A stretch of 62,982 bases of DNA, filler included, from Collodictyon triciliatum (lineage: Eukaryota), in NCBI GenBank assembly GCA_043381765.1. It is 3 parts of 3 records of this genome, joined end to end, with 100 filler letters (N's around TTAATTAATTAA, not from the genome) between each part and the next. Parts side by side here need not be neighbours in the genome. Positions count along the whole stretch, not along the records: positions 22,811 to 47,572 come from JBHJMP010001075.1; 2 more parts are not named here. One strand, 5' to 3'. The notes beneath the pieces are model-generated. The model worked only from the letters and a program-made list of their open reading frames with translations, was not told where the DNA came from and ran no database searches. Position numbers and translations under genes: made by a program. Below are positions 3,299-38,227 of the stretch, in pieces (the first letter of the stretch is position 1; every line of letters starts with the position of its first letter).

Positions 3299-3370
3299 GG
3301 CTTAATGGTCTAGTGGTATGATTCTCCGTTCGGGTCGGAGAGGTCTCGGGTTCGATTCCCGATTGAGCCC
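3299..3370 (+). tRNA. tRNA-Pro (anticodon CGG)
   Basis: Acceptor stem GGCTTAA/TTGAGCC, anticodon arm CTCCG-TTCGGGT-CGGAG, T arm TCGGG-TTCGATT-CCCGA, followed by a T run (Pol III terminator). Confidence 0.95.
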
Positions 3371-3874
3371 GCACTATGTTTTTTTACGCTCATTGGTTCA
3401 TCGGTCTTTGCTTGCTCTCCTTGTTTTTTTTCGGCTCCCTGGTGACCAAACTTGATTTGCCTGTTTATCCTTTTTTTTTTTCTTTCTTGTTCCATTTTCT
3501 TTCCTTCCACGAGACTTTTATTCCATCACCGAAGATGGTTGCTGTAAGCCGAGAGCTCCTCCGCCCAAAATCCATCGCCATCAGTCGACCACATATGAAA
3601 AAAGACAAGGAAAAGAAGAGGAGCTTCATCGCCACCCTAGATTTCCCTTACCCATATATCTATCGCTATCAACATCACCACCAGAGCCTGACCTTTTCGC
3701 CAGCACAGACATTTATTTAGGAGCGCACCGGACTGCAGACACAAGGCAGAAGCGCATGCACGCAAGGGCAAGAAAAGATGTGTGGATGGCTAGGTTGAAA
3801 GCGCAGCAAGAGCTAGAGAAAAAGAAAAAAAAGAAATAGAAAAAAAAGGGGTCTAAAGAAGGAAGGGGAGGGCA

Positions 3875-4942
3875 CTACGCGACCTTGTAGACGGCGTTTG
3901 TCATGTCGTCCATGGCCTTGCGGTGGACAAGGAACTCTGTGACGTTGAAGAGGGTTGTTGCGGCGATCTCGCGGAGGGCGTCGCGGGTGAAGAAGGCCTG
4001 GTGGGCGGTGAGGATGATGTTTGGGGAGGTTGCGAGTGCGCGGAGGACGGGGTCGTCGATGCCGGGGTGCGAGTGGAAGAAGTACTTTGCCTCGTGCTCG
4101 TAGACATCGAGGCCGGCGCCGCGCAGGTGGGCGGAGGCGACGGCTTGGAGGACGGCCTGTGCGTCGACCAGGGCGCCGCGGGAGGTGTTGATGAGGATGG
4201 CGCCGGGCTTCATGCGTGCGAGGGCGCGGGCGTCGATGATGTGCCTGGTGGCGGGGACGAGGGGCATGTGGAGGGAGAGGATGTCGGCGTGCGCAAGGAC
4301 GTGGTCGAGCGGCGCGTACGTCACGCCGGGCGTCTGCGCCAGGGCCGCGTTGGGGTACGCGTCGTAGCACAGCAGGCGGCAGCCGAAGCCCAGGAAGATG
4401 CGCGCAGCCGCCTGCCCGATGGCCCCGGTCCCCAGCAGCCCCACCACGCGCCCCGCCATGTCGAAGCCCAGCAGCTCCCGCGTCAGCGCAAAGTGCCCCG
4501 CCGCGTTGTGCTGCATGGCCTGCGGCAGCCGCCGGTTCAGCGCAAGCGCAAGCAGCGCCGCATGCTCCGCAACCGCCCGCGGCGAGTACGCCGGCACCCG
4601 CGCAAGGCTCAGCCCCGCCGCCCGGCACGCCCCGACGTCCACCCGGTCGAACCCTGCGCACCGCAGCACAAGCAGCTCCGTGCCCCCCGCCCGCAGCGCC
4701 GCCACCGTCGCCGCGTCCGCCTCGTCGTTCACAAACAGGCACACGATCCGGTGCCCCTGCGCCAGCCCCGCCCGCTCCAGGTTCAGCTCCTCCCCCACGA
4801 ACCCCACCTCCACCCCGACCTTCCCGTACTCCGCCTCAAACTCCCGCACCGCCTCCTCGTCGTACTCCTGCGCGCTGTACACAAGCATCCGCACCCGCTC
4901 CTGCCCCGCTCCCGCTCCCGTCTCCTCGCCTCCGCTGCTCAT
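3875..4942 (-). CDS. ldhA: NAD-dependent D-lactate dehydrogenase (LdhA-like D-2-hydroxyacid dehydrogenase), intronless, ~355 aa
   Basis: Motifs LRCAGFDRVD, RVPAYSPRAVAEHA, Rossmann GTGAIG, INTSRGALVD, LDVYEHE, TAHQAFFT. Start taken at MSSGG (4942) because the upstream ORF extension looks non-coding. Confidence 0.93.
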   Translation of the reverse strand: MSSGGEETGAGAGQERVRMLVYSAQEYDEEAVREFEAEYGKVGVEVGFVGEELNLERAGLAQGHRIVCLFVNDEADAATVAALRAGGTELLVLRCAGFDRVDVGACRAAGLSLARVPAYSPRAVAEHAALLALALNRRLPQAMQHNAAGHFALTRELLGFDMAGRVVGLLGTGAIGQAAARIFLGFGCRLLCYDAYPNAALAQTPGVTYAPLDHVLAHADILSLHMPLVPATRHIIDARALARMKPGAILINTSRGALVDAQAVLQAVASAHLRGAGLDVYEHEAKYFFHSHPGIDDPVLRALATSPNIILTAHQAFFTRDALREIAATTLFNVTEFLVHRKAMDDMTNAVYKVA

Positions 4943-5544
4943 CCTGTCCCGCTCTGGCCCTGTGTGGCAAGACTCCCTGTTAGTATCCCCTCTTCTCCTC
5001 TTGCGTAGAGGCCTTCTTTCCTCCTGGCGTTTTGGTTCTCTGCCGTTGCCTCCAATTCGTTCTTGCTTTCTTGCTTGTCTCTTCTGTACTGCTTCATTCG
5101 GATTGCTTGTCTGGCGGGGGCTGTGTCGCCTGAATGTGAGCTTATATGCACCCGAGACTGATTCCATTGCCCTGGGCTGGCTTCCTGTGGTGACGCGCTG
5201 GTGACGCGGCGTGCTGCTGGCGTGACGGTGTCTTCACCTCTTTCGCTTGCCGCCTCTGTGGTCTTCCTTGGTGCCCTGGCACATGCGAAACACACGCCAA
5301 GCACGCAGAAAATGTGCCATTTTTGAGGAAGCAGAGTTTTTTTTTTTCTTCAATAGTGGAAAATATAACACAACTACTGGGCTGTAAAGTTTAATTTCGT
5401 TGTTCGTATCCCTTTGACAGTTACCCAAAGCAGATAGAACAAAGTTGAGTGATATGTGAACATCAAAGTCATTGGCGCATTTAAAAAACAGTATCACCAC
5501 AAACGGATACACCAGCGGTAGGTTTCGCAACACAAAAAGTATCA

Positions 5545-5616
5545 TGACCCCACGCAGATTTGAACTGCGATTGTCAGATTCAGAGTCTGAAGTGCTAACC
5601 GTTACACCATGGAGCC
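5545..5616 (-). tRNA. tRNA-Gln (anticodon CTG)
   Basis: Minus strand GGCTCCATGGTGTAACGGTTAGCAC-TTCAGA-CTCTGAA-TCTGA-CAATCGCAGTTCAAATCTGCGTGGGGTCA folds into a cloverleaf, with a T run downstream. Confidence 0.93.
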
Positions 5617-25800: not shown

Positions 25801-27064
25801 ATTCCATCTGTGCTGTGAAGAACATGGTCATGAACGGCATCAACATCTGCCTCTGGTGAAAATCGAAACATAAGGAGTTCGTAGTTTTCAAAAAGTGAGG
25901 GAGAGGGTAATTTCTTCTTGTCTGGCTTTTCGTGGGCCCGTAAAGCTATAGAGAATGGTTCATGAAATGAGACCTGCAAGAAGATTTTCGAGTAATTAGA
26001 ATTTTTTTTTTAAAAAAAAAAAAGCTATTAAATGCTTATGTCCTGAAGAAAAATCTTTGAGGAGATTTGAGACTTTGAAAATGTACAATCAAAATATTCC
26101 GATATATATAAATTTTAAAAGAGCTATCGAGGAAAACATATATTTAATAAGAGCTTTTTTTTTTTGGTTTGTTTTTTTACGTTCGATCCTTTCTTGATTC
26201 TTTTCCATAAAAGCTCCACAGCAAGTTGAGCCTCCAAGGTTTCATATGACAGAACCGGATAAAGTCGAGCCCTCTCATGTCTCTGAAGCAGCTCTGGTGT
26301 TCTCCATGCTATTGTGATAATAACGAGTACTTCATCCGCAAATCCACTCGGATCTTTATGAGTGTATCAATAAGTATAGGGTGGGAGGAATTCAAACGGT
26401 ATATATACAGAGAGGACGACCATTACACGATGGAAAAAAAAGTGGGAATATGCTGCCGTAGTTTCAATAACTATAATCCAAGGAATGATTATTTTTCATT
26501 TAATGAACATTTTCTCCATAAAGTAAGCGGCGCAAGGAGAGATAGAGTTAACATTGGGAGCACATAAAATAATCATGGTTCTAGCATATTGAAAATCAGA
26601 GAATAGAGAGAAAATCTTGAGAAGAACGGTACGAAAGAAAAGGAAAAGGGAACGAAGGATAGAAAAAAAATCAATATGAACTCACCGGTCCTAGGTGCCA
26701 TCTGAGAGGCTACCGCGAAGTGAAAGTCTACCGCGTGTGGTGGTGGTGCAGAGAGCAACTTGTGTGTCTCTTGGATAAGACGTTCAGCTGCATCCCGCAG
26801 GATCTGCTCATAGAGGGCCGCCTTATATAACACAGGAAAAACGCGCGCCGAGGCAACATTTGGAGGTAGACTTAACTGTTTGACAAGGCTGTGTGTGAAC
26901 GTGGACGCGGGATATATCTGCCGTCGCTCGAGGTGCTGCTGAATCCCTTCTTGGACGTGCCTCTGAAGCTCCGAGCAAAGGCGAACAAAATATCCGTGCT
27001 GATGGCATAGACGCAAGTATTGTTGTCCGATGGCCGAGGGCAGTTGTGCAAACTGCAGAGACAT
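22811..27064 (-). CDS. Large unknown coiled-coil / Ser-rich protein, multi-exon, 3' end lost at the spacer
   Basis: ATG at 27064 (MSLQFAQL), several GT-AG exons and a ~1.7-kb exon (23422-25145) with heptad-rich segments. Confidence 0.75.
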
Positions 27065-27532
27065 GGTCTGATCTATAGAACCTTCGGCAGAGTGTGTTAT
27101 ATGAAAGCATATATGTGTGTGGATGGATGGTGCCTTAGCTTTGAAGAGCCCCTCTTGGATGAGTGATCTTTGAGTCAGGAGTGGAAACTGTCCTTTGGTA
27201 TGGAAACTATGCACCAATTGGCCGAGCAAACAGAAAATGATGAAATAGGAAAAGGGTGTTGACAGATTTCTTCGTTGTGGGATTATCCGATCCATTCTCT
27301 GACGCGCGGGATGTCTCGGGCTTGGGGTTTGCACTCGCGATGCAGTCTAATGGACGCTCCCTCCGTGATATCAAAGGATTCAGTGAATGATTATGAGTAT
27401 AATCGCAGCTTTTCCATCGCCAAGACCGGCGAGTGCCTCTTCTAATATATTCTCTTTTGATTCATTCATTCACATATACACACACTAAACACTTTGGATT
27501 TCTGCCAAGCACGCTGACAGTTTTTATCTACT

Positions 27533-27660
27533 AACTAGAAGGAGTAAACCAATCTTTCGATTGGTAAACCTGGTGCGCTAGTATCCAAGGTCTCACCACT
27601 TTTTTCACAATGGTCGTGCAGTGTTGAAGGCTGCCCGGAAAGACCCGACAGCCAGTTTTT
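27533..27660 (-). ncRNA. Putative Fanzor omegaRNA scaffold
   Basis: Three stem-loops overlapping and following the ORF 3' end: GCTGTCGGG-TCTT-TCCGGGCAGC, TGGTG...CACCA, ACCAATC-GAAA-GATTGGT. The position matches known TnpB/Fanzor omegaRNAs. Confidence 0.5.
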
Positions 27661-29540
27661 TAGAGGAAGGTGTATGCATGTTTTGAAAGATAAAAAGAAC
27701 TTTCTGGAGTACATTTTTAGCGCTGTTAAAGTCCCTTGTCAAGAATACACTTTGTCTGCTTTCTGAGCGATTGCATTCTTTACATATGAGATAACTATAC
27801 ACTTTTTTTGAATTTCCTTTCGGTTTCACATATTCTGGTTCTTTTTTACAGTTGTAACACATCTTGGAGGTTCTAAATTCATCTACGCTAACAGTTTCAA
27901 AACGTTCGGAAGCATTTTTCGTAACCCTTTTCGGATTGTTGGCATAAAATGTTTCATCGGATATTTTCTGCTCCAGTCTCCATACGCCAGTACAACATCC
28001 TTGCCAAATGTCTTTTCGATTCAGTTCATAAACAACTGTTCACTTCTTTTTGCATTAACATACTGCCTCAACTCATCTTTCGAAAAGTTACGTGTTTATA
28101 AAATCTGGATAGTTCTATCTGGTTTCTTGATTTCATAGAAACATATTTTCGAAATTTATCATAATCGACCGTGCATGAATTATGTTTAATCAGTTTTGTC
28201 TCTAAATCGATTAAGGATACTCTTGATGTCTCAAACTGCTGATTCTCTTCAAAAGTCATGTGACCAAAAGAAACAGCACTTTGTAAATCTGTTTCCATGT
28301 ATATCGCTGAATGATTGTACTTTTCTTTTTTCTTGCACAAGAGTACTTTTTGATTTTTAGGAGATTTGGTATCATGTTTTCTTTGGTGTGCCGTGTAGCG
28401 TAATTTCTTGCCTGTCTCATCCACCATGTAAACAAAATTAAACTTGCCTGCATTCAGTCCAACTATTTTTTTGTCGCTAATAATGATAACTGCTCTTCGG
28501 AAAGTTCATCCATATAAACATAATCATAGGTTTTTTTGATTAAATCGGATTTGAATTTGAAATACCTTCCTTTTCAAACAACGATGACACCGCCAAGCCG
28601 TCTGTTTGTATCATGTATTTAAAATTGTAGTATCTTTGATGAAAGACCCTCTTCTTCATTTCAAAGAAATTATCCCATAGTGTCTCTTTGCATCCTGATA
28701 TATTCTTCAGTAAAATGGTTTTTTCAGATAAAACTCATATATTTATCAAACATGCAGTATCTAGAGTAATTTGCATGTCATATTGTAGTTCTTATAGAGA
28801 TTGGTTGAAACAGTTTGGCTCCAATGTCCTAAAAAATGCGACTCATGTAAATCAGACATGGAATGCACTTATTTGGATTGGCTTTGACGACATATTCGAT
28901 ACCATTTACAATGTCGCTAGGAACGATACGATGCAAATGGATTATAGCCCATTATTTATATTGTTCCAGTATTTCGAGTTTCTTGAAGATAGATTTTTTT
29001 TAACTTTCATAACTTTGCCTTTTTCAATAGCTTCCGTAATATTCTCATTTTTAGGAACTGTTTGATTTATAAAGCGCAGTAACATCTTTACAAAATGTTC
29101 CTTAATATTACTATGATATGCTGTTAACATTTGCTTCACCAAGTACAGTAATATATGAGACAGTGTAAACAACTGAAAGCGTTCTTCTCGGGAACAAAAG
29201 TAATCGAAAATCATTGAGATAAAAAGTCATCATGTCTTCTCTCATATCTGGTAGTTTTTTTTAATCTTGCGTGTCTATCTTGTGGGACTATTCCGACTGT
29301 CATTAAAGCGTACAGAAAAACCATTTCATGGATTGTTGGTGGTTCTTGTGCTTTCAATATGTAACATGTTGCAAAAAAATAAGTGTCGGTAACCAAATTA
29401 TGACACAATAAAACCGTATCGTTGATTTCGTCATAGTCATCTGCATTTTTTTACAATTGACTTTAGAGATATTTCACATTTCGATAGTCTGGGTTTACAG
29501 ACTTTAGATTCTCAGACTCAAGGCGTTTTCTTTTCTTCAT
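27605..29540 (-). pseudogene. Fanzor1 (TnpB-like RuvC RNA-guided endonuclease) pseudogene with several stops and frameshifts
   Basis: Reconstructed motifs in order: FKYMIQTDGLAVS; RuvC-I KIVGLNAGKFNFVYM (canonical D-P-G decayed to N-A-G); KKLRYT; FGKDVVLAYGDWS..MKHFMPT; RuvC-II VDEFRTSK + CxxC; CxxC; RuvC-III TRDFNSAKN. No introns evident. Confidence 0.9.
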
Positions 29541-30396
29541 CTGAAAGTCTTTGTTCTACTTTTTTGTTTAGAGCACTACCAAGTTTTCAATTTCAATAAA
29601 ACTTTAGTCAATTGTTAATTTCACGAAAAAAAACTACACAAAATCAATTGTGTAAAATTAAGTATCTACTGAGACTCTCAAAATGTGCGCGTTGTGGCAA
29701 ACAAACACACACAGTTTTTTACAAGTGATTTGAGACAAACCTTTGAGAGCCGATTTGGCGAGTTCGAAATGACGGCCATATAGCCACGGCGACTAAAAGT
29801 CAACATATTGGCCCCAAACGACATGACTACCGCCGCAAGTGAGGATATTATGCTTTTTTGAAATGCATGCTTGGTGGCAGGTATATAGAGTGGGTTCTGT
29901 CTGAGCCAAAGCAAGGACTTGTTTGTATTTTTTGAATTTTAATGCAAAACATTACATCATATAAACGAAAAAATAAAGTATGAATTGATTACAGGAATAG
30001 AATGATTATTAAGTATTGATTAACCTTATTATATACACTAATCATACTATTATATAATTCAGATTGTTTCTTGGATTCATCAAAGCTCCTGCTTTTGTCA
30101 ATCCATATTTAATTCGATGGTTATATGTGCAATAAATTGCTATGTTGATGAGTACACTTTCGTTGTATAAAAAGTGGGGTGCTTTGAAAGGGATAAAATC
30201 AAGTTCGTCACAACCTTTGTCATGAAGTTAATCCATTTACAGGCTGAATGAGACCGAAGATAAAAGAAAAAAAAGAAAGGACAAGTGAACCAGAGCAACT
30301 AATACTGAGCATTACATTCGTATTAATCTCGCCGCCCGTGGGTTGATGGCTAATCAAGAGATATTTTTTTATTCCCTTTTATTACCATTACCATTA

Positions 30397-30794
30397 NNNN
30401 NNNNNNNNNNNNNNNNNNNNNNNNNNNNNNNNNNNNNNNNNNNNNNNNNNNNNNNNNNNNNNNNNNNNNNNNNNNNNNNNNNNNNNNNNNNNNNNNNNNN
30501 NNNNNNNNNNNNNNNNNNNNNNNNNNNNNNNNNNNNNNNNNNNNNNNNNNNNNNNNNNNNNNNNNNNNNNNNNNNNNNNNNNNNNNNNNNNNNNNNNNNN
30601 NNNNNNNNNNNNNNNNNNNNNNNNNNNNNNNNNNNNNNNNNNNNNNNNNNNNNNNNNNNNNNNNNNNNNNNNNNNNNNNNNNNNNNNNNNNNNNNNNNNN
30701 NNNNNNNNNNNNNNNNNNNNNNNNNNNNNNNNNNNNNNNNNNNNNNNNNNNNNNNNNNNNNNNNNNNNNNNNNNNNNNNNNNNNNNNNNNNNNN
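30397..30794. other. Assembly gap
   Basis: 398 Ns. Confidence 0.99.
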
Positions 30795-37561: not shown

Positions 37562-38227
37562 TTGTTTTTTTGCATCGTTCTGCAGGCTCATTCAGGGCTG
37601 TCAAACAATCTGAACTCTCCGCAATTCTCGATGGCAGTGTTATATTCCAAGCTGTTTCGATATAAAATCATCAGTCCGAATCCCTACAAACCGGAGAAAT
37701 TGAGTCGATGGGCCGAAACTATAGGCATTATAGACCCACCAATAGTCAAAAGCTGGAAGCAGGCCCGCATATCTCAGTTAATCCCGAAACACCGCGCCCT
37801 ACTTCTCAATATCCCCAACAGAGAGCTGTGGATAGGTGCGCGTGTAGTCCATGCAGCAACGACCTCTCCAGAATGCATCATGTGCCATAGTGGAGATGAT
37901 TCTATCGAACACACATTTGTGAAGTGCTCTATTGCTCAAAAAGTGACAGAATCTACCCACAAGATGCTCTTTGAGCTTGATTATGCTCCCAACCGACTCA
38001 GCGCGTCTGACATCCTGTTTGGTCCGCAATACCAAATGACCCACGACTCTAGAATACTCAGGGCAGTCACAAGGGGACATATGCTGTGGTCCTTATGGAG
38101 TGTGCGTGCATTCTCTCGCTCCAATGATTCACCCGAACGAGAAATCAATGTATCCAGGCTTGAGAGCCTCGTGCAATACAGCGTATTAAAAGGATTAAGC
38201 AACGGCAATATATCCAGAAATCTATAG
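37562..38227 (+). mobile_element. Non-LTR retrotransposon (L1/Tx1-like) ORF2 3' fragment with zf-RVT
   Basis: CIMCHSGDDSIEHTFVKC zinc-binding motif followed by LWSLWSVR, typical of the L1-clade C-terminus. Intronless. Confidence 0.75.

Follow-up and report, generated by a model that had tools for sequence, protein, structure and literature searches.

A probable omegaRNA scaffold remnant with a flank-derived guide at the right end of a decayed Fanzor1 element

Described Fanzor1 guide RNAs and their resemblance to the locus

In the TnpB systems of IS200/IS605 elements such as ISDra2, the omegaRNA (also called reRNA) has a scaffold that overlaps the nuclease gene at its 3′ end, and takes its guide from the flank past the right end of the element. 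The locus described here would share with them a scaffold lying over the 3′ end of a nuclease gene and a guide taken from the right flank. Unlike it, TnpB is a prokaryotic family associated with another transposase type, and comparison of the RNAs, made via Rfam only, gave no match. Fanzor1 genes are also carried by mariner-type elements of giant viruses, which are reportedly named after Bao and Jurka 2013. In the parts of the published accounts that deal with the guide RNA, the Fanzor1 omegaRNA consists of a scaffold spanning the 3′ inverted repeat and, after it, a variable guide of 14–15 nt (PMC10432273, PMC11423790); its first stem-loop has a constant seven base pairs, while the rest of the scaffold is variable (Xu et al. 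2024, PMC11423790). The corresponding sections of Saito et al. 2023 (PMC10432273) also report ‘ghost’ Spu-1 loci, which are omegaRNA loci without a nuclease gene.

The window analysed here, a stretch of 62,982 nucleotides (filler included) of the eukaryote Collodictyon triciliatum, contains a decayed nuclease gene on its minus strand. The reading towards which we lean is that a dead Fanzor1 element has its right end at the 3′ end of this gene, and with it the remnant of an omegaRNA scaffold and a guide derived from the flank. So far as the SpuFz1 omegaRNA is set out in the relevant parts of PMC10432273 and in structure 8GKH, the candidate resembles it in its place, the sense strand of a Fanzor1 gene at the gene's 3′ end, in having a putative scaffold that runs to the right end of the element, and in being followed by a variable flank that could serve as guide. 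The proteins belong to the same family, the link being P0002, the best full-length protein related to the window gene, which matched the solved SpuFz1 chain (8GKH, Spizellomyces) at E 9.2e-37. The candidate scaffold differs from that of SpuFz1, as described there, in lying wholly within the former ORF, with the stop codon 1 nt from the apparent end of the element. It also differs in showing no RNA similarity at the level of sequence or model; moreover, the gene is dead. The likeness to the ‘ghost’ Spu-1 loci, as portrayed in the sections of the report devoted to them, is that of a guide-RNA end that lacks a functional nuclease next to it and to which one might in principle be supplied in trans; the ghosts, by contrast, are conserved, flanked by repeats and expressed.

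A broken Fanzor1-type gene and the right end of its element

The decayed Fanzor1-type gene occupies positions 27535–29540 of the minus strand, with an ATG at 29540–29538 and an ancestral frame that apparently ended at a TAG (27537–27535). A protein search with its C-terminal piece returned 87 proteins at E ≤ 1e-3, the full-length ones being 610–650 aa long; a cluster look-up of these relatives yielded no informative protein names. Residues 110–603 of P0002 (634 aa, intact) aligned by tblastn to window positions 29223–27665, in four pieces spread over three frames; the match contains stops in frame and an extra ~34 aa. P0002 also matched PpFz1 of Parasitella (E 7e-34) and GtFz1 of Guillardia (E 7e-16), and via P0002 the window gene is homologous to Fanzor1 over the RuvC/TNB region. 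A three-frame translation of the C-terminal piece showed the E motif and the last D motif to be kept, along with two CxxC pairs; against the Pfam family Cas12f1-like_TNB this piece scored 22.4 bits, under the cut-off of 26.3. The RuvC-I motif has N in place of the D of the relatives, and neither an intact ORF nor a full RuvC D-E-D set was found, the gene being interrupted by frameshifts and stops and its RuvC-I D being lost. These protein matches and the resulting pseudogene map identify the gene as Fanzor1-type and broken, in agreement with an earlier note on this DNA, which had recognized here the 3′ end of a Fanzor gene and had called its ORF decayed. By our own reading, the last coding piece shifts frame and reaches the TAG at 27537–27535, and its tail would resemble that of the closest relatives. 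The extra segment (~34 aa, ~100 nt) that splits the alignment to intact Fanzor1 lies in the RuvC region, at 28200–28301 of the minus strand.

Paralogues of the gene were searched for in several ways. No second copy of the element was found within the window. A metagenome scan with the C-terminal piece returned no family member, only one locus (L001) with 39% identity over 46 aa; prokaryote genome contigs searched with P0002 gave no match, and neither did protein look-ups with the 59-aa tail peptide at near and longer lengths.

Five public sequencing runs, none recorded as RNA among those listed, were found to contain small shares of the window. The end of the element was located with related contigs from four public runs (X1–X4), placed on the window at 80% likeness. 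The evidence that these contigs provide consists of loose ends of 30 letters and a few listed differences, and the parts they leave uncovered carry no meaning. Their coverage extends from ~27552 up to at least 29700, with 319 of the contigs coming from X4 alone, and left of 27552 their depth is near zero. Two X1 contigs were identical to the unique flank (27105–27255 and 27310–27460), and the source organism is therefore present in run X1. The right end of the element would fall within 27525–27538 on the minus strand: the match to other copies ended at 27534 according to the aligner, with weak likeness to 27525. Loose ends were seen at 27534 (an X1 contig), at 27554 (a second X1 contig) and at 27552 (two X2 contigs). 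The last three share one continuation, unlike that of the window, and may come from one locus; allowing a gap of 2–3 bases, they still show, by eye, the last 7–8 element bases of the window. Past the position that corresponds to 27534, the window and the two continuations all diverge from one another; over the next 8–10 bases an A+T-rich, weak likeness of 6–7 positions in 8–10 was seen, and none beyond 27525. The element end was placed between 27534 and 27525 because the continuations of the copies diverge there; with four contigs, two continuations and 30 letters each as evidence, it may lie anywhere in this range.

Taken together with the published design, the end defined by the contigs points to the flank at 27514–27533 (minus strand) as candidate guide; with 27525 as the end of the element, it would start at 27524. 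The guide start of about 27532 proposed in the earlier note lies within the range where family similarity ends.

The 8-base word AGTAGATA occurs both at 29670–29663, upstream of the Fanzor start, and at 27532–27525, just past the apparent 3′ end. The pair could be a target-site duplication, or else a chance or internal repetition; the former is in doubt because related contigs cross position 29663.

Structured 3′ modules in giant-virus relatives and the hairpins of the window

Separate scans of giant-virus contigs detected intact P0002-like genes at 5, 77 and 78 loci. The closest to the window, that is, the nearest proteins whose DNA could be compared, were L002/L203 (46% identity over 87 aa), L204 (50% over 74 aa) and the L003 type (56% over 71 aa). 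These relatives possess a 3′ module that starts within the tail of the ORF and finishes with a conserved end of the GGTGTAAA or GGTGTAAT type. In 19 modules of one giant-virus clade, four helices were recognized in which 95.5% of the cells were paired, versus 43–50% when the partners were slid; both sides had changed in 10 of the 26 pairs (55 cells). For nine modules of the clades nearest the window, with six helices, 94.6% of the cells were paired, versus 38–52% after sliding. The last helix is formed by an internal TTTTAC-type motif, plus the bases that follow it, and the very end of the element; in this terminal helix TTTAC pairs with the last bases, GTAAA, and a hairpin lies between the two strands. 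Just before a conserved CTTCAC-type motif, the ORF tails of L002, L003 and L204 contain one more covarying hairpin, carried by just three distinct sequences. The fold of the L002 module had a z of -4.77.

A pattern scan of the viral contigs returned mostly chance 15-mer matches, and filtering for neighbouring motifs kept 12 loci. Eleven belonged to a single subfamily and had 10 different flanks between them; the twelfth, L105, was of the L066 type and had a flank of its own. In all 12 the last conserved bases are the same and are followed at once by the flank. In L204 a TAA stop falls inside the most conserved motif of the module, and nucleotide conservation continues behind it (L204:1657–1877); since the stop codon sits inside the motif, the conservation of the latter is not protein-coding. 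The ORF tails of these viral Fanzor1 genes look like by-products of an RNA. Sister loci translate the bases that follow the stop of L204.

The sequence L002:1637–4952 is a complete element, bounded by perfect 32-nt inverted repeats (1637–1668 and 4921–4952), with an intact 634-aa Fanzor1 gene and, on the opposite strand, an ORF for a DDE_3 transposase. Its right repeat makes up the final 32 nt of the structured module at the 3′ end. As judged from these alignments, the module of the relatives matches the published Fanzor1 design of a scaffold over the 3′ inverted repeat, followed by a variable guide. The arrangement that the earlier note had taken as its premise, with a scaffold that overlaps the ORF end and runs to the end of the element and with the flank coming next, can thus be seen in intact relatives. 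A small upstream ORF, located ~70–330 nt before the Fanzor start, is conserved in L013, L018, L019, L024, L009, L012 and L025; in L013 it has 84 aa and no Pfam match, and ends ~70 nt before the Fanzor1 start codon.

Compared with the giant-virus mariner-type elements (L002–L029, L203–L215), the window is alike in its protein (46–56% identity over 71–87 aa) and apparently in having an ORF-tail hairpin, a central motif able to pair with the final bases, and another hairpin lying between those strands. It is unlike them in that the viral modules terminate in a conserved repeat of the GGTGTAAA type and are recognized across clades by a covariance model (R1, below), whereas the window shows neither their motifs nor a left repeat or a transposase. 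No inverted copy of its last 17 nt was found in the window at up to three mismatches, the best 22-mer match to a left inverted repeat in the window reached just 14 of 22 positions, and tblastn of the window with the DDE_3 protein of L002 returned nothing below E 3.6. The terminal inverted repeats and DDE gene that define a mariner-type (DDE_3) transposon are therefore missing from the window, whereas its relative L002 has both.

Two hairpins are predicted at the 3′ end of the window gene, both inside the last 120 nt of the former ORF and on its sense (minus) strand. Hairpin 1 (27629–27653) consists of a 7-bp outer stem, separated by one mismatch from two further pairs that close a 5-nt loop; its outer stem may correspond to the seven-base-pair first stem-loop of the published omegaRNAs, a resemblance and nothing more. 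The second hairpin (27548–27565) is a perfect 7-bp stem with a GAAA loop, and is followed on the minus strand by a 14-nt tail that ends in CTAGT (27538–27534) and then by the A-rich flank. Both are present in the MFE and in the centroid structure. The complementary 5-mers TGGTG (27598–27594) and CACCA (27575–27571), also on the minus strand, are paired with each other in neither. Coordinates, strand and sequence of the hairpins, the tail and the flank were all as quoted in the earlier note; its description of the hairpins as intact holds for these two, but not for the third stem that it had drawn from TGGTG and CACCA, which appears in no predicted fold. In the related contigs one difference only was listed for this stretch, at 27619, outside the stems.

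The 148 nt from 27513 to 27660 had an MFE of -44.6 kcal/mol and a z of -3.16, with one in 200 shuffles equally good, a score that owes part of its value to pairing between element and flank. With the flank included, the proposed terminal helix discussed below adopts an alternative register of 7 bp that reaches down to 27529. For the element alone (27534–27660) the z was -2.03, eight of 200 shuffles being equally good, and the terminal helix was absent from the MFE. In a sliding scan (130-nt windows, 26600–30369), the segment 27520–27649 ranked second lowest among 92 minus-strand windows (z -2.69); on the plus strand its z was -0.09. The 3′ structure is thus strand-specific, but just moderately above chance. 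Nor are perfect 7-bp stems closed by a 4-nt loop rare: such hairpins have 30 start positions at ~16 places in the window, compared with 5.2 ± 2.5 in 30 block shuffles. What lends the 3′ structure weight is its position. Rfam gave no match in 26500–30400 except a chance SCARNA7 fragment, and in the whole window it detected two tRNAs only. The lowest z of the scan (-2.87) was recorded at 29640–29769 of the minus strand, upstream of the Fanzor start codon, and short inverted repeats (29447–29464 with 29640–29657) were seen close to it.

Two covariance models, both built from viral sequences only, were run on the window: R1, made from the 19 viral modules, and R2, made from the nine modules nearest the window. 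In the whole window R1 gave 26 matches at E ≤ 10, none of them within 27420–27720; on this interval alone its best minus-strand score was 0.9 bits. At E < 0.01, R1 did detect a module at the ORF end in 13 of the 22 viral loci outside its training set, L002, L003 and L204 included, so that its failure here is not for lack of sensitivity among viruses. R2 scored 6.6 bits on 27420–27720 (301 bases), which is not significant (E 0.19), and the window gene's 3′ end was not among its six matches at E ≤ 5 in the whole window. With the modules of the relatives as models, the window was thus left unrecognized at significance by R1 and R2.

The best R2 alignment was nevertheless on the minus strand, global, and ran from 27628 to exactly 27534, the end obtained independently from the contigs. 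It sets ACTAG (27582–27578) and CTAGT (27538–27534) where the viruses pair TTTAC with GTAAA, which makes ACTAG the proposed 5′ strand of a terminal helix. It also contains 3-bp counterparts of two further helices, weak ones given the non-significant 6.6 bits overall, within 27594–27626 of the minus strand: in P1, positions 27626, 27625 and 27623 would pair with 27594, 27595 and 27597, so that TGGTG is paired upstream instead of with CACCA; in P2, 27618–27616 would pair with 27606–27608. By our own reading, hairpin 1 would sit at the place of the ORF-tail hairpin of L002, L003 and L204, and the GAAA hairpin, by analogy of position only, would sit like the hairpin between the terminal-helix strands of the relatives. 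The window thus appears to share with the viral modules the order of the parts, without demonstrable RNA homology.

One could take the stretch for decayed coding sequence and nothing else, with hairpins formed by chance in a family that never used an omegaRNA scaffold here or no longer shows one. The modest fold of the element alone, the frequency of perfect 7-bp tetraloop hairpins in the window, the lack of significance with both models and the blank Rfam search speak for this account. It would leave to coincidence, however, that two stable hairpins fall in exactly the last 120 nt of a Fanzor1 ORF and on the sense strand only, that a structured module occupies the same place in all the intact relatives examined, and that the R2 alignment stops at an element end found by other means. 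We regard it as unlikely.

Interpretation of the 3′ end

A different objection concerns where the element ends. It might continue to ~27475, in which case the supposed guide would be a variable linker within a longer scaffold, TTTAC at 27548–27544 would be the 5′ strand of the terminal helix, and a hairpin at 27508–27494 and a TG-rich end at ~27490–27475 would correspond to the last hairpin and the right repeat of the relatives. MAFFT did set these segments of the window under the conserved motifs of the relatives, the distance from TTTAC to 27475 (~73 nt) is close to the 65 nt of the relatives, and R1 aligned 27508–27494 to a hairpin of the model, albeit at -0.8 bits. The other copies, however, show two different continuations right past 27534–27525; besides, neither R1 nor R2 gives a worthwhile match over 27475–27533, and the terminal helix so obtained would have mismatches at four of 14 positions. 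A longer element is accordingly quite improbable. Still less credit can be given to the idea that the structures are DNA-level signals of a transposon end (a terminal repeat or subterminal hairpin read by a transposase) and not RNA: the last 32 nt of the L002 module are indeed the right inverted repeat of a DDE_3 element, but the window has no matching left repeat or transposase, the covarying helices of the relatives reach far inside the repeat, and the fold advantage is confined to the minus strand, which indicates G-U pairs and thus RNA, the DNA and RNA roles being in any case compatible with each other.

The stretch is thus probably what is left of an omegaRNA scaffold whose guide came from the flank, one more representative of an already described kind. 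In working relatives, the same-strand DNA at the right end of the element would be transcribed into an omegaRNA whose scaffold overlaps the ORF end and includes the right terminal repeat, and which would continue into 15–20 bases of flank, the guide. The equivalent of this scaffold in the window would extend from ~27653 to 27534 on the minus strand. Its survivors would be the hairpins at 27653–27629 and 27565–27548 and, possibly, a terminal helix between ACTAG (27582–27578) and CTAGT (27538–27534), the middle of the putative scaffold being poorly defined. The candidate guide, should an omegaRNA be made, would be the flank that starts at 27533 (or at 27524) and runs downward. We infer that these hairpins derive from a scaffold of this type and formerly worked as a guide RNA; today the locus is most likely inert.

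If the omegaRNA reading is true, this would add a diverged Fanzor1 family to those whose guide-RNA end is legible in the sequence, and would link a host-genome family to the Fanzor1 elements of giant viruses; even then, the understanding of how Fanzor systems work would stay unchanged. An intact member of the family, if there is any, would be a Fanzor1 with an unusually ORF-embedded scaffold. Any action of the window RNA in trans is pure speculation, no intact paralogue having been seen. One may picture a host-genome Fanzor1 family, related to those of giant viruses, whose scaffold lies wholly in the ORF and ends one base after the stop codon, and whose dead copies feed folded guide RNAs with guides of their own to a few intact paralogues; such a family would mirror, in a host genome, the fungal ‘ghost’ loci, but we give this picture little chance of being correct.

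Elsewhere, the window contains ORFs with SPX/VTC, 2-hydroxyacid dehydrogenase and zf-RVT domains, and is eukaryotic. The zf-RVT ORF (37562–38227) is a retroelement remnant. The 2-hydroxyacid dehydrogenase ORF (3875–5167, minus strand) encodes 430 aa without interruption and lies in a G+C-rich region (59%) of a window with 35–45% G+C; it is flanked by two tRNA genes, at 3299–3370 on the plus strand and at 5545–5616 on the minus strand (3299–5616 in all).
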